From Terriglobia bacterium (lineage in GTDB: Bacteria > Acidobacteriota > Terriglobia > 20CM-2-55-15): 64,000 nt of DNA. The notes beneath the pieces are model-generated. The model was not told the origin of the DNA and did no database searches. It saw only the letters and a list, made by a program, of their open reading frames with translations. Positions 1 through 10,714 of this stretch are shown in pieces. Each line of letters begins with the position of its first letter. Within the stretch, counting starts at the first letter, position 1. A program made the position numbers and the translations under genes. The stretch is taken from contig CBDCLE010000003.1 of the NCBI GenBank assembly GCA_965218585.1, forward strand, positions 128,001 to 192,000, given 5' to 3'.

Positions 1-15
1 CGCGGATATGAGACC

Positions 16-684
16 TTGACCCTGGATACGCAGCGGACGATGGTTCGGATCAAGGCAATGTATCGAGGACGTGGGATCCGGACGCCGGGCCACGGCGTCT
101 ACCTCCCATCGCAGCGGGAACACTGGATCGAACAGCTCGCCAATACCGGTGCACGGCGGCGTACCGGATGGTTGTATGAGGAGCTGGATCATCTGAGAGG
201 GTTAAGAAAAAAAGCGAAGCTGGCGATGTTAACCGAGAGCTGCAAGCATCGTGCGGTGGGGATATTGCAGACGATTCCCCAGTTGGGACCGATACGTTGC
301 GCCTTGATTGTAGCGACGGGGGACACCCCGCATCGATTTCGAACCAAACGCCAGCTCTGGAACTACAGCGGTCTGGCCGTGGCAATGCACATGAGTGCGG
401 AGTATGAGCAGGAAGGGAGTCGTGTGGTACGTCGTCGAAAGCCGATCGCCACGCGGGGACTGAACCGCAACGGCAACCGACGTTTGAAAGATGTGTTCAT
501 CGGGGCGGCGACCGGAGGCATGGGGGCCGAACCTTGGAAAAGCTACCTGGAGGGGCTCCAGAAAGACGGCAAGCGTAAGGAGATGGCTCGGCTGACACTG
601 GCGAGGAAGATTGCAGCGACCGCACTGAAGATGTGGAAGAAAGGAGACACGTTTAACGCAAAGAAACTGAACTTGGCGACATAG
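16..684 (+). CDS. IS110-family recombinase/transposase, C-terminal part (5' end outside window)
   Basis: Motifs LQTIPQLGPI, RF...QLWNYSGL, catalytic-Ser region HMSA, GNRRLK, LARKIA. Confidence 0.9.
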   Translation: MTLDTQRTMVRIKAMYRGRGIRTPGHGVYLPSQREHWIEQLANTGARRRTGWLYEELDHLRGLRKKAKLAMLTESCKHRAVGILQTIPQLGPIRCALIVATGDTPHRFRTKRQLWNYSGLAVAMHMSAEYEQEGSRVVRRRKPIATRGLNRNGNRRLKDVFIGAATGGMGAEPWKSYLEGLQKDGKRKEMARLTLARKIAATALKMWKKGDTFNAKKLNLAT

Positions 685-689
685 CCGTT

Positions 690-900
690 TCCAGACTTCT
701 GCCGACAGCGCGAGGCATTCGACCGCTCGTCGTCGGTGAGGCGTCGGAACGGTAGGGTCGAGGGTGAGGATCCGATACGCGGTTGGCACACAGCGCTTGC
801 TGAAGGCCCATGTAATACTCTATCCCCCCTCGCACGACCTGGAAAAGCGATAGCCCTCGAGGCTCAGATAGAACCGTGGTCGGCAATCACGACCCCTTTG
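690..900 (+). ncRNA. Putative bridge/seek RNA in the IS1111 right end
   Basis: Stems 700-706/879-885 and 756-770/823-839; internal segment 774-784 is the exact reverse complement of flank 1070-1080. Confidence 0.7.
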
Positions 901-1069
901 CGCTTTTCAGTTTCTCGAAACCACACCACGTTGTGATGAGTGATCGACTTCTCTGCGATGCCGGATCAACAGTTCGTCTCAACGGAGACAGGGGCTGGCT
1001 GCCACGACAGTGTTGGGTCCGGTGGTCCGCTCGGCGGGGACGTGTTTCTCTTGACAGCCCCTTCCATAG

Positions 1070-2877
1070 AACCGCGTATCTCCCTGTGCGTATTCGGCTT
1101 CGATGAGGCCATCCCTCCTCGCGCCGGTAGGGGCGAGGAAGACAAAGTCATCGATGTCGTAGTAGAAGAGATTGATCTCTCCCTGAAGGCGGTTCCTCCG
1201 GTGCCGCAGCGCGAAGTCAAAGCCGTGGCTTCGCTCCCTGCCCAGCGTCGGGTTTCCAATCTCGAAAGTCAGGTTCCCAACATGAGGACCGAAATTGTAA
1301 AGTTCTTCCATTGCCGGGGCCCGGAACGAGTCGGTGTAGTTGGCGACAAACGCCCCGCCGTCCCATAGGTCGAACCGCGCGCCTATACCGGCAGAGAAGC
1401 CCGTAAAGTCGATGTCCCGTGCCGCGGTGTTGCCGACCGGCTCGAAGTTGTTGTGTTCCAGGCGTCCCCCCAACTGCAGGCGGACCCGATCAAAACTCAG
1501 TTCTTCAAGCCCGAACACGGCGAACGCTTCTTGATCGACCGGAGGGGACAGAGCCTCTTCGCCCCTTGTTTCGAAGTCACGGGTCAGTCCCCAGAAACCG
1601 AAGCTGCCCGAGAGGTGATCGCCGCTTCCCTGAGTGAACACACCTCTGTAGACGAACTGTTGATTCTCAAACGTTGTGCCGATCTCCTGCACGCCGTCAT
1701 CGAAGATCTCCAGTTCGTCGTGATTCCAGTCCGAATAATTGAGCGAGAGTTCGAAAGAGTCGACGATCGACCCAAGGTTTCTCAGCCCCGTAGTCAGCCG
1801 GATTCCGTGCTGCCGGAACGCAACTTTCACAGCGTCCACAGCTTTCCCGGTTTCTCCTCCGCCTTCGAAAGTGTGCGCGAACGGAATGCCGTAGCGGCCG
1901 TCGTTACCCTGGTACCCAACGCTGGCAAATGCCTTTTCTCCGAACCAGCCGAGACCGACCGATCCATTGCTGATTCGGCTCATCGAGTTGTGGATCACGC
2001 CGATCGGGGTTTCGTAATCGTCCGTACGCTGCCCTCCGCCTCCCAACCACAGAAGCCATCCGCCAGCCCCGTACTCGGTCGTGAAACTGCCACCCGCCTG
2101 CTCGTTCGCCGAGCCCGCCGATGACGAGATCTGCCCGCGCAGGCCTTCGTAGGGTTGTTCCAGGAAGCTCTCGTGGGTGCTGATCGCATTGACGACGCCA
2201 CCGATGGTGTTGCTTCCGTACAGGAGCGTAGCCGGTCCCTTGACGACTTCAATGCGTTCGACGCTCCCCCCATCGATGGGTTCTCCGTGGTCGCCTGACT
2301 GCGACGCCAGCGACCCGATGCGCATTCCGTCCTGCATCACCAGTACGCGATCGCCATCGAACCCTCGAACCACCGGCCGGGAGTTGCCCGCTCCGAAGCT
2401 GCGCTTTCGGACGCCCAGTTCTCCATCGAGCATTTCTCCAAGAGATGTCGCCATCACCTCGGACAGATCGAACGAGTCCAAAGTTGTCACCGACGGGATT
2501 GCCTGGAACGTTGTTTCCTGGCGGCCCTGTGCCGTGACCGTGATTTCCTGACGCAGAGGAGAGATTCGCAGCCGGATGTCGAGTGTCGCCCTCGCGCCTC
2601 CGACCACTTCGACAAACTGCGTTTCCGAGTCGAGGGCCGACTGGAAGGCGAGGACCTCGTACACGCCCGCCGGTACGTCTTCAAATCGGTATTGACCGGT
2701 TTCGTCCGTTTCAGTCGTTACGCCCAGTTCCACCAGTAGCACAGTGGCCCGGTGGACAACTTCATCGGCCGAAAGCCTGACCCTTCCTTCAATGGATCCG
2801 GATTCTTGTGCCCAGCCCGGCCCGGGCACAGTTACCAACACGAAAAGGGCCACTAATGGAAAGTAAAAACGCTTCAC
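1070..2877 (-). pseudogene. TonB-dependent receptor (ZnuD-like), C-terminus removed by IS1111 insertion
   Basis: Signal peptide, carboxypeptidase-like N-domain, plug (SRPVVRG, ERIEVVKGPATLLYG, SGDH), beta-barrel strands; frame runs into IS sequence after GDTR. Likely GTG start at 2877 with GGAGG SD. Confidence 0.9.
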
Positions 2878-2950
2878 CGGTTCCTCCGCAGACATTGACG
2901 CTATCTGCGACCGAACGAATCAGATTTTTTCTTTGAAACAGTCGGAGGAG

Positions 2951-3292
2951 TCAGGCCCTTGGCGGGCCCCGGCCTAAGACGTTGGAGGCGTAACTGGTGA
3001 TCAGTGTGTCGGAAAAGGAGGCCTTGGTTGCACATGCCTGGCTATTGGCAGAACTGGAACTCAAAAGCCTGAACTGTGCGAAGGCGCTCGAATGCGGGCA
3101 TGCATGGGAAGCGTGTCCATCAACGCGGTTGTAGGATGCGTGGACGACTTCTCCCGTGCCGCTGTGCTGATGCGATGCGGAAAAGTCCTCCTCGAGGGGA
3201 TGGAACACTTCCAGCGCCCACTGGAAACTGAATCCAAGAAGGAGAGGCAATAGCAGAAGAGCTATTATTTTCTTATGGTCACGCCTCAGCAT
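2951..3292 (-). CDS. DUF2946-like leader / ribosome-arrest peptide, His-rich, C-terminal RGPP
   Basis: 113 aa from ATG 3292: basic N-terminus, hydrophobic segment, SHQH and HASHACPH, ends LGRGPPRA; directly upstream of the receptor. Confidence 0.75.
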   Translation of the reverse strand: MLRRDHKKIIALLLLPLLLGFSFQWALEVFHPLEEDFSASHQHSGTGEVVHASYNRVDGHASHACPHSSAFAQFRLLSSSSANSQACATKASFSDTLITSYASNVLGRGPPRA

Positions 3293-3303
3293 TGTTATTA
3301 GAA

Positions 3304-3309
3304 AGTATA
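3304..3309 (-). promoter_or_regulatory. -10 element (TATACT) for the leader-receptor transcript
   Basis: TATACT 11 nt upstream of ATG 3292, implying a near-leaderless mRNA. Confidence 0.4.
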
Positions 3310-3447
3310 CGGAAATCCCGTATTGAACAGTATGTTTTGTTACAGAGTGGTGTCGGTCTGCGGAGGGCAATGCTCGGGGTAAGAATCGGCTGAAAGCTAA
3401 AGAAGGCATGGCGGCTGGGCCACCATGCCTTCGATTCGGAAACGATT

Positions 3448-3756
3448 TTAGTACCGGCCGTATCCGCCACGGCCGCCGCCACCGCCGCGGCCACCGCCAC
3501 CGCCTCTGTCTACCTGAGGCCGAGCCTCGTTGACAGTCAGGGGGCGTCCTTCAAGATCTTTTCCGTTAAATTCGTTGATCGCCTTTTCGGCCTCTTCGTC
3601 ACCCATTTCAATGAAGCCGAAGCCTCGTGACCGTCCTGTGTCGCGGTCGGTGATGATTCGGACTGATTCTACGGCTCCAACTTGACCGAACATGTCGGAG
3701 AGGTCGTCTTCCGTCGTCTGGAAGGGCAGGTTTCCAACGTACAGTTTCTTTGTCAT
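3448..3756 (-). CDS. RRM RNA-binding protein with Gly-rich tail
   Basis: RNP2 LYVGNL, RNP1 RGFGFIEM, VNEARP, GGGRGG tail. Confidence 0.97.
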   Translation of the reverse strand: MTKKLYVGNLPFQTTEDDLSDMFGQVGAVESVRIITDRDTGRSRGFGFIEMGDEEAEKAINEFNGKDLEGRPLTVNEARPQVDRGGGGGRGGGGGRGGYGRY

Positions 3757-4172: not shown

Positions 4173-5634
4173 CTACTATGTTACAAACGGTCTATTTTAT
4201 GTTAGCATCCGGTCATGAGCGCCAAATCGAAGGCGCCAGGCACTCAGGAAAAACGTTTTGCGGCCTATTTGGAACGCCTGGCGTCGGCCGCAGGACACGC
4301 CGATCGTCATGAACCGTTGAAGTCGTACTGCACCGGGTTGTTGCTGCCGATCAAACGTAAGAGTGTGGAGCCGATGGCTGCACGATTGGCTCCGGATAAT
4401 GTACGCCGAATGCACCAGTCGCTACATCATCTGGTCGCGGATGCGCCCTGGGACGATGCGGCTCTGTTGGCAGAAGTTCGACAGTACGCGCTGGGGGCGA
4501 TGGAAGCCAACGGTCCGATTGAAGCCTGGATTGTCGACGACACCGGATTCGTGAAAAAGGGGACCCACTCGGTGGGTGTGGCCCGGCAATACTGTGGACA
4601 GGTCGGCAAACCAGAACTGCCGGGTGGCGGTGAGCCTGTCGGTGGCGACAGCGAAATCCAGCTTGCCGGTGGCATGGCGACTCTACCTCCCCGAGACCTG
4701 GGCGAAGGATCCGGAACGTCGAAGCAAAGCCGCTATTCCCGAAGACGTTCGATTTCAAACTAAACCTCAAATTGCTTTGGAACAAATCCGGCAGGCCGTC
4801 GATGACGGCATTGCTCCGACACCGGTTCTGGGCGATACGGCCTACGGCAACAACTACAAGTTCCGGCACGGCATCACCGAACTCGGACTTAGCTACGTCC
4901 TAGGGGTGCAAGGCACCACGACCGTGTGGAAACCGGGCCAGGGTCCCTTGCCGCCGAAATCCTTGACCGGCCGCGGACGGACACCGACCCGCATGCAGCG
5001 CAACAAGAAACATCAACCGGTTTCGGTCAAGCAACTGGCCCTCTCGTTGTCTCCCCAGCGTTGGAAGAACGTCTCCTGGCGCGAAGGCACCTCCGAGACC
5101 CTGCGTTCCCGTTTCGCCGCAGTTCGCATTCGTCCCGCTCATCTGGATCACGAGCGCCACTCGCCGCATCCGAAAGAGTGGTTGTTGGTCGAGTGGCCCA
5201 AGACCGCATCCGAACCGATCCGGTACTGGCTCTCCACTCTTGGGGCCCATACCTCGCTTTCCGATCTGGCCGGTCAGGCCAAACAGCGCTGGATCATCGA
5301 ACGCGACTATCAGGAACTCAAGCAGGAACTCGGTCTGGGACACTACGAAGGTCGCGGCTGGCGTGGATTTCACCATCATGGCACCTTATGTATTGCCTCT
5401 TATGGGTTCCTGGTCGCCGAGCGGAGCCGTTTTTCCCCCTCTGCATTTGTCGAGCATGTTGGACTATCCGTCCCCAAACTCCCCAAACACTTCAAACCCC
5501 GCGGAACCCCGGATCCGGCCCGAACGACATAACCCCTGCTCGATTGCCACGCTTCGCATTCGCATCGCCCGCTTCCTGATTCAGCAGCTTCCTCGTTGTC
5601 CGTTCTGTGGACCGCTTCGTTTGTAACACAGTAG
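4173..5634 (+). mobile_element. IS701-family element
   Basis: IRs CTACTATGTTACAAACG / CGTTTGTAACACAGTAG; 5-bp duplication TAGTA at 4168-4172 and 5635-5639. Confidence 0.92.
4215..5532 (+). pseudogene. IS701 DDE transposase, frameshifted near 4610
   Basis: WIVDDTGFVKKGTHSVGVARQYCGQVGK in one frame; QNCRVAV...RWIIERDYQELKQELGLGHYEGRGWRGFHHH in another. Confidence 0.88.
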
Positions 5635-5836: not shown

Positions 5837-7150
5837 ATGAGAAGTAAAGCGGTACAGAGAATTGTTGGAGCGATCGTTCTTGGTCTCGTGTCGAGTGTGA
5901 TGGCGATGGCATCTCCGGCACCAGCTGCCCAAAGGTCTGCGGCAGAGATCGAGGCCCGGATCGAGGAACTGAGTCGCCAGGTACAGGTATTGGCGGCCGA
6001 GATGGAGCGGCTTCGCAGCGGCGAATCTGATGTCGAAATCGAAGTTTCAGACGACGAGGCGAGGCAACTCGGCCTCGGGAGTGCTGCGGCTTCGGTTTAC
6101 CGGCAAGACCAGGGCGTTTCCATTGCCGGTTACGGCGAGATGCTCTATGAGAACTTCGCCAACAAGAATGAAAGCGGTGCCAGTGTAAATAAAGGGACCC
6201 AACGGGATTTTCTGAGGGCCGTCACTTATTTCGGTTACCGCTTTAACGACAAGTTTCTATTCAACTCGGAAATCGAAGTTGAGCATGCGAATGAAATCGG
6301 CGTCGAATTTGCTTATGTCGACTACCTGGCACATCCCGCACTCACGTTGCGCGGGGGTTTATTGCTGATTCCTATGGGATTGACCAACGAGTTTCATGAA
6401 CCGAACGCCTTCCTCAGTGCAAGGCGCACGGAGACCGAGAGCCGACTTTTGCCATCCACTTGGAGAGAGAACGGGTTTGGTGTCGTGGGCAGGGCTGGAA
6501 AGTTCAACTATCGGGCCTACGTCGTGAACGGCCTGGATGCAGGCGGTTTCAGCGCGAACGGTCTTCGCGGTGGCCGTCAGAAGGGATCGAAGTCGCAGTT
6601 CACAGATGCCGCCTTCGCGGGCCGGCTGGATGTGACGCCTGTTCCCGGCGTTTTCATTGGCGGGTCCTTCTATACGGGAGATTCGAACCAGGGACAGTTC
6701 TCCTCTAGCGGGGAAAGCTTTTCAGTCCGTACTCGGATGGTGGAAGTCCATGGGCAGGCGCAGTTGAGGGGATTCGATTTTCGTGGCTTGTATGCGCGTT
6801 CGGTTATAGACAATGCCGACCTGCTGAACAATGCACGGTCTCTCACAGGTACGAGCGGTGTGGGCGAGGTCCAGGAGGGCGGTTATTTGCAGTTCGGCTA
6901 CAACCTTTTTTCTCAGGTTCGGCCGGATGTCGCCCTGACGCCTTTTTACAGATTCGAATCGCTGGATACTCAGGCTCGCGTTGCCTCAGGGTCCTTGAAG
7001 GACGCGACCATGGATCGCGTGTTTCACACACTGGGTCTTTCGTTTGCCCCTATTCAGAACGTTGTCGTGAAAGCAGATTACCAGTTTGTGGCCAACGACG
7101 GTACGAGCGGAGTCGATCAGTTCAATGTCGCGCTTGGATATAGCTTCTAG
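5837..7150 (+). CDS. Outer-membrane porin-like protein with N-terminal coiled coil
   Basis: Signal peptide, coiled coil, GYGE, FNSEIEVEH, EFAYVDY, NEFHEP, C-terminal GYSF. Confidence 0.8.
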   Translation: MRSKAVQRIVGAIVLGLVSSVMAMASPAPAAQRSAAEIEARIEELSRQVQVLAAEMERLRSGESDVEIEVSDDEARQLGLGSAAASVYRQDQGVSIAGYGEMLYENFANKNESGASVNKGTQRDFLRAVTYFGYRFNDKFLFNSEIEVEHANEIGVEFAYVDYLAHPALTLRGGLLLIPMGLTNEFHEPNAFLSARRTETESRLLPSTWRENGFGVVGRAGKFNYRAYVVNGLDAGGFSANGLRGGRQKGSKSQFTDAAFAGRLDVTPVPGVFIGGSFYTGDSNQGQFSSSGESFSVRTRMVEVHGQAQLRGFDFRGLYARSVIDNADLLNNARSLTGTSGVGEVQEGGYLQFGYNLFSQVRPDVALTPFYRFESLDTQARVASGSLKDATMDRVFHTLGLSFAPIQNVVVKADYQFVANDGTSGVDQFNVALGYSF

Positions 7151-7661
7151 CCTTTCGTTGGCGCTGGTGTTTGGTTTTTCCCTCACCGGTATTGCAGAGG
7201 CGCAGACGACACGGGAGGAAGCACTTGCACAGGCTTTTCCCGGAGCCGACATCCGCGCTGAACGTGTCTTCCTGACCCAAGCCCAGCGAAGCGCGGCCGA
7301 AACAGAGTCTGGGGTAGAGGTCCCGTCTTTGCTGATTGCCCGATACGTTGCAACAGAAGGCGGAGATTCGGTGGGCAGTGCGTATGTGGATACCCATGTC
7401 GTGAGAACCAAGAATGAAAGCCTGCTGGTCAGCCTGGACACCGAGGGACAGGTGAAGCGGATAGAAGTCACAGCTTTCCTGGAGCCTCCCGATTATATGG
7501 CGCCTAGCGCCTGGCTGGCCCAATACGAAGGACAGGTCCTCACCGAGGAACTGAATTTGAACCGGACCATCCGGCCTATAGCCGGCGCGACTTTGACGGC
7601 GATCGCAACGACCGAGGCGGTTCGACGAGTTTTAGCCATCGATCGAGTTTTGAACCAATAG
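7125..7661 (+). CDS. Exported FMN-binding (flavinylated) protein
   Basis: Signal peptide; flavinylation-type motif IAGATLT; in an operon with apbE. Confidence 0.85.
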   Translation: MSRLDIASSLSLALVFGFSLTGIAEAQTTREEALAQAFPGADIRAERVFLTQAQRSAAETESGVEVPSLLIARYVATEGGDSVGSAYVDTHVVRTKNESLLVSLDTEGQVKRIEVTAFLEPPDYMAPSAWLAQYEGQVLTEELNLNRTIRPIAGATLTAIATTEAVRRVLAIDRVLNQ

Positions 7662-8022
7662 ATCTGAGAAAATACGATGAGACCCTGGGAGATCTGGTTG
7701 TCCCACATTTCTACGCTTCTGGTAACGGTGAGCGGAGTGGCTTATCTCTGGATGAAATACTTCATGGAGACCGCCGATCCCTTTGCCATCGTCAATCATC
7801 CGTGGCAGTCCGCGATGCTCAGCCTGCACGTTCTGGTGGCTCCCGCCCTGGTGTTCGTTGTCGGGCTCATGGTTCAGTCCCACATCCAGAAGAAGCTTCG
7901 GAGCGGTACGAATTCGAATCGCAGTTCGGGTCTTGTCTCGATGGTCACGATGCCGGTGATGATCGCTTCGGGATACATGCTGCAGGTCGTGACTGCGCCT
8001 CTATTGGCAAGTATCACGCTAG

Positions 8023-9572
8023 GAGCCTGCGCCGTAGGAAGTGAATGAGATAATAGTGTCGCAGTTAGGAGGAGAATGCGATGCCGACGACGTTTCGCCC
8101 GTACCAGCCGGAGCAGGGGTTGCTGCTGGCGCCGGATATACGGGATTGGTTGCCGGAGGGGCACTTGGCACACCATGTGAGCGATCTGGTGGACGGATTG
8201 GACTTGACGGCGTTTTACGCGCCTTACGAGGGGGACGGTCGTCGCAAGTCGCCGTATGAGCCGCGGATGATGGCGAAGGTGCTGATCTACGGGTACGCGA
8301 CGGGGGTGTTTTCGTCCCGAGGGCTGGCGCGGAAGCTGGAGGAGGACGTGGCATTTCGGGTGTTGGCGGCGGGGAATTTTCCGAGCCATCGGACGATTTG
8401 CGAGTTTCGCCGGCGTCATTTGTCGGATTTCAAGGCGCTGTTTGTGGAGGTGGTCGGTCTGGCGCGCGAGACCGGGGTTGGGAACTTCGGCAAGTTGTCG
8501 ATCGACGGGACGAAGGTTCGAGCCAATGCCAGCAAGCGCAAGGCGATGAGTTACGGTCGGATGCAGGAGGAGGAGCGGCGCCTGGAGGGCGAGATCGAAG
8601 CGTTGCTGTCGCGCGCGCGGGAGACCGATGCGGCGGAGGACGCGCGTTTCGGGGAGGCGCATCGCGGCGATGAGTTACCCGAGGAGTTGCGCCGCCGGGA
8701 GGATCGGCTGGCGGCGATCCGGGCGGCCAGGGCGCGATTGGAGGCCAGGCAACGGGAGGCCGACGAGGCGCGGGGACGCGAGCCCGGTTCGAAGCGCAAC
8801 CGGAAGAGCGGGCGGCCCTACAAGCGGGAATACGGCGAGCCGGACGAGAAGGCGCAGGACAACTTCACCGATCCCGAAAGCCGGATCATGAAGACCTCAT
8901 CGGAGGGTTTTCAGCAGTGCTACAACGCGCAGGTGGCGGTGGAGGGAGAGAAGCAGTTGATCGTCGCCACCGAGGTGTCGTCGAACGCCAGCGACCAGGG
9001 TCGGCTGGTCCCGTTGGTGGACGAGGTGGAGGCCACCCATGGGGAACGGCCCGAGACGGTGCTGGCGGATGCGGGCTACTGCAACGAGGACGACCTGGAG
9101 GCGCTGGAGGCGCGCGGCGTGGACGGCTATGTGGCCTTGGGCCGGGAGGGCCGGCGCGCGGTCGCGGTAGACGCCGCCAGGCATCCGGCGAAGGCCCGCA
9201 TGGCCGAGAAGCTGTCGATGGAGGCGGGACGGGTGCAGTACGCCCAGCGCAAATGGCTGTCGGAGGCGCCCAACGGGTGGATCAAGGAGGTGCTCGGCTT
9301 CCGCCGATTCAGCCTGCGCGGCCTGAACAAGGTCCAGGGCGAGTGGAACTTGGTGTGTCTGGCATTGAACGTCAAGCGGATGCAGGGGCTTCAGGCAGCC
9401 TGATGACAGGGATACCGCCCGCAAATCAGGCCGAACGAGGGTCGATTCAAGCACCCGTGGCGCACCCATCGGCGCCTCGTCGTCCAAAACGCCCATTCCC
9501 CGGTCACCGATACCGATCAATCGCCATATCGCGAAATTCGCCGAGTCGAAAATCGTCCTACGGCGCAGGCTC
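8023..9572 (+). mobile_element. IS1182-family element, copy 1
   Basis: IRs GAGCCTGCGCCGTAGGA / TCCTACGGCGCAGGCTC, CTAG on both sides. Confidence 0.95.
8081..9403 (+). CDS. IS1182 transposase
   Basis: LPEGHLA, SSRGL, IDGTKV, TDPESRIMK, ADAGY. Confidence 0.95.
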   Translation: MPTTFRPYQPEQGLLLAPDIRDWLPEGHLAHHVSDLVDGLDLTAFYAPYEGDGRRKSPYEPRMMAKVLIYGYATGVFSSRGLARKLEEDVAFRVLAAGNFPSHRTICEFRRRHLSDFKALFVEVVGLARETGVGNFGKLSIDGTKVRANASKRKAMSYGRMQEEERRLEGEIEALLSRARETDAAEDARFGEAHRGDELPEELRRREDRLAAIRAARARLEARQREADEARGREPGSKRNRKSGRPYKREYGEPDEKAQDNFTDPESRIMKTSSEGFQQCYNAQVAVEGEKQLIVATEVSSNASDQGRLVPLVDEVEATHGERPETVLADAGYCNEDDLEALEARGVDGYVALGREGRRAVAVDAARHPAKARMAEKLSMEAGRVQYAQRKWLSEAPNGWIKEVLGFRRFSLRGLNKVQGEWNLVCLALNVKRMQGLQAA

Positions 9573-9703
9573 CTAGGGCTTCATCTGGTGTCCTCTTCGA
9601 TCTTTGTGACTACCTACCTCGCCCATCAGGTCGTCAGCTACCGACTTGCCAGACGGTCGGAGCTTGGGGGCCAACCCGGAGTTTTTGCCTGAAAACAGGT
9701 CGC

Positions 9704-10714
9704 GTGAAGGCTCTGCTCCTGATTCCCGCCGTCTGTTTCGCGCTTGTTGCCGAGTGTTTCGCCTGGCCCGCCCCCGCGCCGGTCCAGGTGCGCCGGGACG
9801 TTTACCTGATGGGAACAAGGGCCTCGCTCGAGGCCTACGCTCCGGATCGCCAGTCGGGACTCAACCGGATTGAAAGTTTCCTCCGCATTCTAGAAAACAC
9901 CGACGAAGAGTTGAGCACCTGGAAGGCAGACAGTGTGATCAGTCGTCTCAACCGGCACCCTCTAGGTGAGAGCTTCGGGCTCAGTGCCTCATTGTGCGAT
10001 CTCTTCCCCAGACTTAAGACGTGGACTGATCGAACAGGCGGTGCCTTCGATCCTGGGGTTGGAACTCTCGTAGAAGCCTGGGGTCTTAACAGCGGAGGTC
10101 GACGGCCAACCGAGGGAGAACTTCGGAATGCGCTCGAGACTACGGGTTTCGGGAACCTTTCTCTGGACGCCGAGGCCTGTCTTGCCACCAGGGATCGAGC
10201 AGTGTTGATCGACGTGGGAGCGTTCGGGAAAGGCGATGCTCTGGACCGTGTCAGGGATTACTCAGTTGATGCCGGCTTCGATAGTTGGATGATCGATCTC
10301 GGAGGGCAGATCATGGTTCGGGGTGCGGGACCGGATAGAGGCGGATGGAGGGTTGACGTGGCACATCCCCTAAACCGGACCCAATCAGTCCTGACGATTC
10401 AGCTCAGGGAAGGCTCACTCGCAACTAGTGGTGGGTCGGAACGCGATATCGGAACAGGCGAGACACGCATCGGTCACATACTGAATCCCGAAACCGGGCA
10501 TCCCATCCGGACAAGCGCCACCGTTACGGTGTGGCACGAGCGGGCCCTGGTTGCCGATATCCTTTCGACCGCTCTCTACGTGATGGGTGTGGATAAAGGC
10601 CTTGCCTGGGCCGAGACGCACGGTATTGCGGCAATTTTTCTGATACCTGACGATTCGGGACAGGTTGAAGTTCGTGCCACTTCGTTGTTTGAAGAAACGT
10701 TTCTCGAAAACTAG
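9704..10714 (+). CDS. apbE: FAD:protein FMN transferase
   Basis: LMGT, GAFDP, DVGAFGKG, DLGG, ATSG, HILNPETG, ADILSTA. Confidence 0.95.
   Translation: MKALLLIPAVCFALVAECFAWPAPAPVQVRRDVYLMGTRASLEAYAPDRQSGLNRIESFLRILENTDEELSTWKADSVISRLNRHPLGESFGLSASLCDLFPRLKTWTDRTGGAFDPGVGTLVEAWGLNSGGRRPTEGELRNALETTGFGNLSLDAEACLATRDRAVLIDVGAFGKGDALDRVRDYSVDAGFDSWMIDLGGQIMVRGAGPDRGGWRVDVAHPLNRTQSVLTIQLREGSLATSGGSERDIGTGETRIGHILNPETGHPIRTSATVTVWHERALVADILSTALYVMGVDKGLAWAETHGIAAIFLIPDDSGQVEVRATSLFEETFLEN

Follow-up and report, generated by a model that had tools for sequence, protein, structure and literature searches.

A candidate metal-relieved arrest peptide upstream of ZnuD-like receptors in Terriglobia

The leader locus

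The DNA considered here, referred to as the window, is a stretch of 64,000 nucleotides (nt) from a Terriglobia bacterium (NCBI GenBank assembly GCA_965218585.1, contig CBDCLE010000003.1, positions 128,001 to 192,000). On its minus strand, a small open reading frame (ORF) of 113 codons plus stop runs from ATG 3292 to TGA 2953..2951, and directly precedes a gene for a ZnuD-like TonB-dependent receptor, as had been proposed. An original prediction, made from the letters of the window, had noted an export-type N-terminus, clusters of histidines (FHP, SHQH, VH and GHASHACPH) and an RGPPRA end in this ORF, all of which are confirmed by reading the sequence. The tail at 2971..2951 reads CGG GGC CCG CCA AGG GCC TGA (R108-G-P-P-R-A-stop), and no other ORF of the genome pairs a hydrophobic N-terminus with R[GA]PP in its final 12 residues. 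Comparison with related loci suggests that the ORF probably encodes a regulatory leader peptide rather than a working protein. This peptide would arrest the ribosome near its own stop codon and thereby govern access to the Shine-Dalgarno (SD) sequence of the downstream metal-uptake gene. The features of the leader, the spacer and the receptor start are as follows.

2951..3292, minus strand: leader ORF, 113 codons plus stop (sequence reading, homologue searches)
3203..3289, minus strand: residues 2-30, N-terminal hydrophobic helix predicted by AlphaFold2, signal peptide or membrane anchor
3188..3211, minus strand: motif 1, E28-V-F-H31-P-L-E-E35 (ExxHPxEE), candidate metal ligand set at the helix end (alignments)
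3092..3115, minus strand: motif 2, H60-A-S-H63-A-C65-P-H67 (HxxHxCxH), candidate metal sensor (alignments)
2972..3091, minus strand: linker of variable sequence and fixed length, its RNA C-rich and G-poor (C 36-40%, G 17-23%)
2984..2988, minus strand: upstream CCUCC in Ala-Ser-Asn codons, a back-up partner of the SD in the predicted folds
2960..2971, minus strand: R108-G-P110-P111, putative arrest motif, with the Pro110 codon (2965..2963) in the presumed P site and Pro111 in the A site
2878..2950, minus strand: intergenic spacer of 73 nt, predicted to form a long-range helix closing over two inner hairpins
2943..2949, minus strand: anti-SD TCCTCCG, one base past the stop and +16..+22 from the first P-site base (pair probabilities 0.92-0.97)
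2882..2888, minus strand: receptor SD CGGAGGA (predicted unpaired probability 0.01)

The leader start is placed at ATG 3292 because the homologous frames in loci L002-L004 close 2-16 codons upstream of it. A longer frame from ATG 3409 was rejected; it crosses the terminator hairpin of the upstream gene for an RRM protein, and homologues give it no support. The receptor start is the GTG at 2877..2875, and homologous receptors begin with V/L/M-K-R and carry GGAGG 4-8 nt upstream. The alternative start ATG 2895 was discarded, since homologue starts and SD placement support GTG 2877 instead.

A conserved family of small leaders

A word-indexed search recovered 11 proteins, including that of the window, which align end to end with 47-92% identity. 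The 92%-identical leader (P0002) lies on other contigs. Whole-genome searches located the leader gene in 14 of the 35 genomes of the window's taxonomic family, spread over 4 of its 11 genera; among 401 genomes sampled from the class and 401 from the phylum, 16 and 11 carried it, respectively. An order-level search gave the same 35 genomes as the family-level search. A profile built from 18 sequences found 43 clusters at E <= 0.001 among 1.84 billion representatives, and one named record places the group in Terriglobia, Acidobacteriota. Scans of sequence collections added few loci, namely one from genome contigs and two from metagenome contigs.

No member of the leader family had a meaningful Pfam match. 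The DUF2946 family (PF11162), to which the copper-responsive leader CruR belongs, matched none of 18 members at E <= 10, and its model found nothing in the window's own genome at E <= 1. Comparison of the leader family with four acidobacterial DUF2946 proteins by hhalign returned a probability of 0.4% (E 0.16). In NCBIfam, 3 of the 18 members gave weak matches to LpqS, a putative copper lipoprotein (best E 0.008), and weak matches to DUF6153 were also obtained. Judged from sequence, the leader family is a small, conserved, unannotated gene without a Pfam family.

Conservation is concentrated in a few short segments of the peptide. Residues F21, L27, E28, H31, P32, E35, H60, C65, H67, A70, A72, R108, P110 and P111 are invariant in an alignment of 18 sequences, and F21, E28, C65, H67, R108, P110 and P111 are invariant in one of 52. 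Across the family, a basic N-terminus precedes the hydrophobic helix. AlphaFold2, run on the 52-row alignment, gave ten-residue blocks of the helix at residues 2-30 a mean predicted local distance difference test score (pLDDT) of 83, 96 and 81, and the remainder a score near 50; no fold was predicted beyond the helix, and hence no metal site was modelled. In motif 1, H31, P32 and E35 are nearly invariant among the 52 sequences, and E34 is nearly invariant in both alignments. In motif 2, H63 is nearly invariant and the single invariant Cys sits within HxCxH. The leader was originally described as carrying HxCxH and His tracts in place of a CxxC, and this description stands: no CxxC was seen on reading the whole 113-codon ORF, nor does the family match DUF2946.

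The distance between this Cys and the Arg of the terminal motif is 43 residues in 36 of 38 measurable sequences, with 42 and 44 occurring once each. The linker between them is not conserved in sequence despite its constant length, and such fixed length without fixed sequence is the pattern predicted for a nascent-chain ruler. The distance from motif 1 to the Cys is variable, at 31 to 47. With Pro110 in the P site, the sensor motif lies 43-50 residues from the peptidyl-transferase centre. As the ribosome exit tunnel holds roughly 30-40 residues, motif 2 would then be placed just outside the tunnel.

Conservation of RGPP or RAPP among homologues, which had been suggested as a check, was borne out. 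R[GAS]PP occurs 2-8 residues before the stop in 39 of 43 representatives (26 RGPP, 11 RAPP and 2 RSPP); of the other four, one is frameshifted, one is a fragment of 54 residues, one is fused and one (P0041) has no such motif near its end. The assignment of Pro110 and Pro111 to the P and A sites is borrowed from the toeprint of CruR (PMC12992588).

Predicted masking of the Shine-Dalgarno sequence

In the window, CTCCTCCG occupies 2950..2943, directly after the leader stop, and had been read as the complement of the SD CGGAGGA at 2888..2882. The true complement is 7 bp long (TCCTCCG/CGGAGGA), since the first C of CTCCTCCG stands opposite an A. Folding of the region, which had been suggested as a check, gave -46.5 kcal/mol for 2860-2990 and recovered the SD helix; the fold is mildly unusual (z = -2.3; 5 of 200 shuffles were as stable). 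Counting both strands, the window contains the word TCCTCCG 21 times where 17.5 would be expected, which amounts to roughly a 1% chance per 60-nt spacer. Furthermore, the energy of the anti-SD/SD duplex is no better than that of shuffles of its C/U-rich 5' segment (z = -0.2). The pairing in the window is weak evidence by itself, and it is the comparison across the family that carries weight.

This comparison covers 25 loci. The counts omit duplicates (L009, L010, L013, L015, L022, L033 and L035-L048), L021 with a gene of the His_kinase type, L034 with no complete leader by pattern, L049 and L050 with spacers >200 nt, and L020 with a frameshifted leader, the last being used only in the anchored pair counts. 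L024 derives from an unpublished genome (G096), and the conclusions are independent of it. In all 25 loci the next start preceded by an SD lies 61-85 nt past the leader stop on the same strand. Its SD is predicted to be masked throughout, with a mean unpaired probability of 0.02 and none above 0.14; the corresponding values for 116 other genes of the genome that have a GGAGG SD are a mean of 0.31 and a median of 0.24, with 26% at or below 0.14. The proposed sequestration of the receptor SD in the window (0.01) thus has counterparts across the family.

With the first base of the first Pro codon taken as position 0, the masking strand varies in position. The SD pairs with the Pro-Pro codons themselves (CCUCC, 0..+4) in 8 of the 25 loci, and with the last sense codons running into the stop codon (+8..+12) in 11; in two further loci the partner lies partly inside 0..+14. 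A stalled ribosome has a footprint that reaches about +14 according to toeprint and frameshift-spacer data, with an edge certain only to 1-2 nt. In 19 of the 25 loci the partner lies inside 0..+14, and the position of these strands under the stalled ribosome would explain why RxPP is always close to the stop. The original proposal that a stalled ribosome covers the anti-SD is consistent with these 19 homologous loci and not with the window, for which it was made. There, the Pro codons (CCG CCA) and the last codons cannot pair with GGAGG, and the window is the sole locus of the 25 with its SD partner at +17..+21.

Changes in the pairing strands are matched within the +8 register. In its 12 loci, an ungapped helix over +8..+20 accounts for 123 paired cells out of 156; sliding the partner strand by 1-3 nt lowers this number to 66-82. 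The pair at +13 is GC in four loci, AT in three and GU in two, several pair types occur across +13..+20, and among the +13 types a change between UGA and UAA stop codons is matched on the SD side. In 12 of 25 loci the leader end pairs best with its own SD region or that of a sister locus (the cognate duplex ranks 1-3 of 25), and the mean energy was -15.8 kcal/mol for cognate and -12.4 kcal/mol for non-cognate duplexes. Regarding the predicted conservation of the anti-SD/SD pair, the masked SD (25 of 25) and the compensatory pairs of the +8 register agree with it; the anti-SD is not positionally conserved across the family, and the arrangement in the window is unique. RNAalifold found 0 pairs in 15 spacers, as the masking strand lies in a different register from one lineage to another. 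When nine spacers that share a register were aligned with MAFFT, the SD was misplaced by one column, and pairs were then counted in anchored coordinates.

Two further observations concern loci outside these counts. In the distant members L049 and L050 (tail RGPPLS-stop), a strong GC hairpin stands before the receptor, which suggests a different output device. In L020 (G001:C6, a second copy at about 1471-1930), the paralogous leader carries a frameshift that puts RGPPLL-stop out of frame, while its spacer, masking helix and receptor start are retained.

Genes downstream of the leader

Judged from N-terminal translations, the downstream gene encodes a receptor of the same type as in the window in 23 of the 25 loci. 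Confirmation of downstream genes by Pfam covers three loci, and the remainder was judged by N-terminal translation; the CarboxypepD_reg, Plug and barrel domains are Pfam-confirmed in the receptor of the window and in that of L058. Locus L009 holds a full-length homologous receptor ORF of 748 residues, and full-length relatives measure 742-773 residues. For a full-length relative, the closest solved structure is ZnuD (4rdr, 7e-36) and the top NCBIfam model is also ZnuD (NF038289, 2.2e-64).

Two lineages, G004 (which belongs to the window's genus) and G021, carry a different set of genes. In L055 and L056, what follows the leader is a porin-like outer-membrane gene together with genes for a ZnuA-family binding protein (1e-48 and 1e-42) and an ABC-3 permease; in these lineages the permease is fused to HEAT repeats. 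The porin-like genes of the window and of L056 are marginally alike (E 0.029). In L055 (6077-7617, minus strand; G004) the porin-like gene lies in overlapping frames near its 3' end, possibly reflecting a frameshift. In L021 (G049:C167; leader tail GRGPPTV-stop), the gene 167 nt away encodes no receptor but a membrane protein that has several passes and a His_kinase domain (E 2e-7).

Proposed mechanism and rival explanations

In the reading we consider reasonably probable, the leader is a metal-relieved arrest peptide that gates translation of the uptake gene by holding the anti-SD strand. It builds on computed results, namely the conservation of the family, the constant distance of 43 residues, the predicted sequestration of the SD, and a masking strand whose position is accompanied by compensatory changes in its flanks. 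From these we infer the stall, the binding of metal, which metal is bound and in which direction the switch works. The N-terminal helix would target the nascent chain to the membrane, and the C-terminal RGPP would stall the ribosome when Pro110 and Pro111 occupy its P and A sites, respectively. During the stall, the HxxHxCxH motif 43 residues upstream would sit just beyond the exit tunnel; in a chain engaged by the translocon, motif 1 would lie beyond the membrane and motif 2 at the tunnel exit. In the absence of metal the stall would persist, and the stalled ribosome would hold the masking strand (Pro-Pro, or the last codons and the stop) so that the uptake gene can be translated. Binding of the cognate metal, most likely zinc, to HxxHxCxH on the nascent chain, possibly together with ExxHPxEE, would release the stall and allow the leader to be completed. 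Release would re-mask the SD, and uptake would be on in metal shortage and off in plenty.

Zinc is slightly favoured as the sensed metal because Znu-type genes lie downstream and the leader offers His, Glu and single-Cys ligands with no CxxC or Met-rich motifs. The preference is kept small because ZnuA-family proteins can also carry Mn or Fe. The suggestion of a Zn-, Ni- or Co-sensing leader therefore fares well in one respect, as the ZnuA proteins and ABC-3 permeases of two lineages make a non-copper metal plausible.

The possible manganese or iron cargo is one of several results that weigh against this account. The ZnuD model scores 218 bits against a curated cut-off of 950, and on this comparison the receptor is ZnuD-like and not a ZnuD equivalog. 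The 25 loci are related and represent roughly ten lineages, which means that the counts overstate their independence. The SD partner lies elsewhere in three of them, and among the ten distant loci (L023-L032) only L024 has a cognate pairing that is better than the non-cognate ones. When the stalled ribosome was imposed on the folds as a constraint, SD accessibility was >= 0.15 in 12 of 25 loci and stayed below 0.15 in the other 13, because other C/U-rich stretches re-pair with the SD; the thermodynamic modelling of the stall is supportive, not clean. In the window, the anti-SD at +16..+22 falls just outside the footprint of roughly +14 (P site at Pro110), and the modelled stall leaves the SD paired (0.00) with footprint edges up to +20. 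Finally, the receptor of the window is a split pseudogene and there is nothing to switch in this genome, so the claim that the leader controls this receptor fails here.

These last results lend some plausibility, short of an even chance, to the explanation that the logic has been altered or lost in the window. In that case the SD would be opened only by a terminating ribosome, or the locus would be a decaying remnant beside a dead receptor. The sole SD partner at +17..+21 fits this explanation, as do an accessibility of 0.33 under a modelled terminating ribosome (compared with 0.00 under a stalled one), the splitting of the receptor by an insertion sequence (IS) and an inversion, and two more IS copies within 10 kb. 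However, the leader ORF is intact and retains every motif, and the 92%-identical leader P0002 exists on other contigs. In addition, the footprint edge is known to 1-2 nt only and the lower part of the window helix (GCC and G at +9..+13) lies beneath the stalled ribosome. Coupling to termination would turn uptake on in metal plenty, which makes little physiological sense. For the window itself, the design is probably atypical and defunct.

A second explanation retains the arrest peptide and changes its output. As in CruR, the leader may act mainly through Rho-dependent termination, with the stalled ribosome shielding a C-rich Rho utilisation (rut) site in the 3' half of the leader; upon release, Rho would terminate transcription in the spacer and the SD helix would be secondary. 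The last 150 nt of the leader average 38.7% C and 25.1% G over the 25 loci, compared with 29.4% and 29.4% in the first 150 nt, which counts for Rho and against a purely translational switch. The C>G bias of the 3' half is found in all 25 loci (C 36-40% and G 17-23% in the window), and CruR is described as having a C>G bubble that extends from the ORF into the spacer (PMC9426467). Such a mechanism would also explain why the anti-SD of the window need not lie beneath the ribosome. Conversely, the C bias may merely reflect a linker rich in Pro, Ala, Ser and Thr, and the bias is mixed in the spacer itself (mean C 26.7% and G 25.0% over the 25 loci; 25 and 25 in the window). The spacer is short (61-85 nt compared with 162 bp in CruR), and the lineage-specific compensatory pairing of the SD with ribosome-covered codons is left unexplained. 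On balance, Rho as the main output is somewhat unlikely, but Rho-dependent attenuation has to be taken seriously as a rival of the translational switch or as its partner.

A small metal-binding protein that works in the periplasm or membrane (a chaperone or metallophore-like protein), with RGPP being incidental, is very improbable as the product of the ORF: the conserved His, Cys and Glu motifs, the export-type N-terminus and the weak LpqS matches (3 of 18 members, best E 0.008) would suit one, but no fold is predicted (pLDDT about 50 past residue 30), the linker keeps its length and not its sequence, RxPP is always 2-8 residues from the stop, and RAPP and RGPP are reported to be strongly avoided in proteomes outside arrest peptides (PMC12992588).

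Relation to known arrest peptides

The known system closest in logic is CruR (Bp2923, DUF2946/PF11162) of Bordetella pertussis, which lies upstream of the TonB-dependent transporter BfrG (PMC9426467). Its regulation depends on RAPP and the spacing between CxxC and RAPP is conserved (PMC9426467); the arrest has been toeprinted (PMC12992588). CruR acts through Rho-dependent termination (PMC9426467), and cytoplasmic metal sensing has been proposed for it. CruR is not a precedent for unmasking of a ribosome-binding site (RBS); the proper precedent is CutF of Rhodobacter capsulatus, in which the stall melts an RBS-shielding stem-loop (PMC9973294; bioRxiv 10.1101/2025.02.05.636593). In contrast to CruR, CutF is reported to sense metal in the periplasm.

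The leader family resembles CruR in being a small exported leader directly before a TonB-dependent metal-uptake receptor, with a C-terminal R-x-P-P a few residues from the stop. Both have a Cys sensor at a fixed spacing (45 intervening residues in CruR and 43 here), a 3' half biased to C over G and a poorly structured mature part; in the four acidobacterial DUF2946 proteins found, the second Cys and the Arg are 44-45 residues apart. The expected logic is also shared, in that metal would relieve the stall and shut off uptake. However, no sequence kinship is detectable between them (0 of 18 members by Pfam; 0.4% by hhalign), and the leader family has HxxHxCxH and ExxHPxEE where CruR has CxxC. 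The spacer of 61-85 nt with a masked SD differs from the 162 bp with a Rho terminator in CruR, and the likely metal is zinc here and copper there.

CutF shares with the leader family a downstream RBS sequestered in an RNA helix, which here is an in silico result (unpaired probability 0.01 for the window, and no higher than 0.14 in any of the 25 loci). Unlike the leader family, CutF is a DUF2946 member, and copper induces its stalling to switch on a detoxifying oxidase; with uptake genes downstream, the opposite sign would be expected here. A masking strand located at the ribosome on the Pro motif, as in CutF, is absent from the window and present in 19 of the 25 family loci. A survey of CutF-like proteins sorted them into 29 clusters, whose motifs contain Cys, His or both; TonB-like genes ranked among the most frequent neighbours, most spacers were <100 nt, and phyla beyond the three major ones were described as minor (PMC9973294). 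It is fairly likely that the leader family joins the logic of CruR with the RNA device of CutF.

Fujiwara et al. 2025 defined a 'TonB-related' class of RAPP/RGPP proteins throughout Gram-negative bacteria (PMC12992588). As in that class, the leader is a small protein with a localisation signal and RGPP or RAPP near its C-terminus, encoded just upstream of a TonB-dependent receptor. It has the features that the Chiba group gives for RAPP/RGPP proteins, namely R-A/G-P-P near the C-terminus, a signal or membrane segment and a same-strand gene just downstream. The accessible text of PMC12992588 presents statistics, not the motifs, ruler, anti-SD design or metal of the leader family.

The known kind extends to other arrest peptides. 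In SecM and MifM, the stalled ribosome keeps an RBS-masking structure open; unlike the leader family, these peptides monitor the secretion or insertion machinery rather than metal, and their arrest sequences are different. RAPP/RGPP arrest, upstream ORFs before TonB receptors and both output devices are in print, and the kind of system is thus already known, contrary to the earlier suggestion of an undescribed version. What appears to be new is a family without Pfam entry, the motifs of its sensor, a ruler of exactly 43 residues, a masking strand that coincides with the stall codons and the link to Znu-type genes. A search of the literature found no zinc-responsive arrest peptide, although the supplements of two surveys may already list members of the family. 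The broadest claim is correspondingly tentative and rather doubtful, namely that this is the first zinc-sensing nascent-chain switch, with a single-Cys/His sensor and a 43-residue ruler, whose stall or last codons serve as the anti-SD and gate ZnuD-like receptors and ZnuA/ZnuB importers.

Copper is the only metal for which sensing by an arrest peptide has been demonstrated (CruR and CutF). The leader family would provide a compact example with a different ligand set, an exact distance from sensor to arrest site and a masking strand coinciding with the stall site. If the proposed mechanism is true, translational control by metal extends to zinc uptake in soil Acidobacteriota, and 'hypothetical' 113-codon ORFs before TonB receptors should be annotated as regulatory leaders. 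The family is a good handle on nascent-chain sensing of non-copper metals, while the locus in the window is an atypical and probably defunct copy.

The broken receptor and its neighbourhood

In the genome of the window, the locus is rich in insertion sequences and the receptor is dead. The two features at the left end of the window are as follows.

1063..2877, minus strand: N-terminal part of the TonB-dependent receptor, about 605 codons from GTG 2877 (CarboxypepD_reg, Plug and barrel; Pfam, homology), cut by an IS
1..1078, plus strand: right part of a 1568-bp IS110-family element with transposase ORF 1..684 (Pfam Transposase_20, genome copies)

Homology to the 748-residue relative ends at its residue 612 (window 1063), where the IS110-family element begins. 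This element spans C3:127511-129078, and the genome contains at least 16 copies that are almost identical. The rest of the receptor, from about residue 610 to the C-terminus, is encoded on the opposite strand at a distance of 57 kb, next to an inverted IS copy. The two inverted copies, 55 kb apart (partner C3:70650-72209), have exchanged flanks, each with one half of the receptor gene; this implies either an inversion mediated by the IS or a join made at the repeat during assembly. The arrangement fits an IS insertion followed by a 55-kb inversion between the two copies. Short-read contigs from four public runs over 600-3500 break off at the edge of the IS, and no contig spans this edge with 31 nt on each side. 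The junction between IS and receptor is accordingly that of the assembly only.

Two further IS elements lie within 10 kb of the leader locus. At 4215-5532 a transposase of the DDE_5 type is found in two overlapping frames (4215-4763 and 4576-5532), and at 8081-9403 one of the DDE_Tnp_1/DUF772 type. The latter element seems to remove the last ~45 codons of a membrane-protein gene at 7677-8048, as judged against a 161-residue homologue in L009. A divergent cluster at 5837-10714 on the plus strand is syntenic in L009. It encodes an outer-membrane protein whose N-terminus forms a coiled coil (5837-7150), an FMN_bind protein (7086-7661, E 3e-4), a small membrane protein and an ApbE flavin transferase (9704-10714), and may represent an extracytoplasmic flavoprotein system linked to metal uptake.

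The region upstream of the leader

An RRM-type RNA-binding protein with a Gly/Arg-rich tail (3448-3756, minus strand) is encoded directly upstream of the leader, with a strong terminator at its end, and a gene for an RRM-type protein occupies the equivalent position in L009. The features between this gene and the leader are as follows.

3402..3432, minus strand: intrinsic terminator-like hairpin of the RRM-protein gene, a 14-pair stem followed by a T run
3304..3309, minus strand: -10-like hexamer TATACT, 11 nt before the leader ATG (sequence reading)

The position of the terminator 5' of the leader implies that the leader has its own promoter. No SD was seen in the 11-nt gap between TATACT and the ATG in the window, and a -10-like hexamer stands 9-14 nt before the start in most of 15 upstream regions read by eye; the leader mRNA is probably nearly leaderless. 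A consensus promoter scan upstream of the leader returned no sigma-70 site, and an Rfam search of 2600-3600 returned no family at E <= 1.

An inverted repeat, ATACGG-N5-CCGTAT (3307-3343, minus strand), overlaps the -10-like TATACT. In addition, the upstream motif GTAACAAAA..TACT is kept in four genus-level relatives. It occurs once in the genome, and for this reason no regulon can be derived from it. Both the repeat and the motif are candidate operators for an added layer of transcriptional control. Contigs from a second study (run X2) carry a variant of the leader region at 2895-3323 with 17-20 differences per 224-234 nt, and this variant probably represents a strain with the 92%-identical leader P0002.

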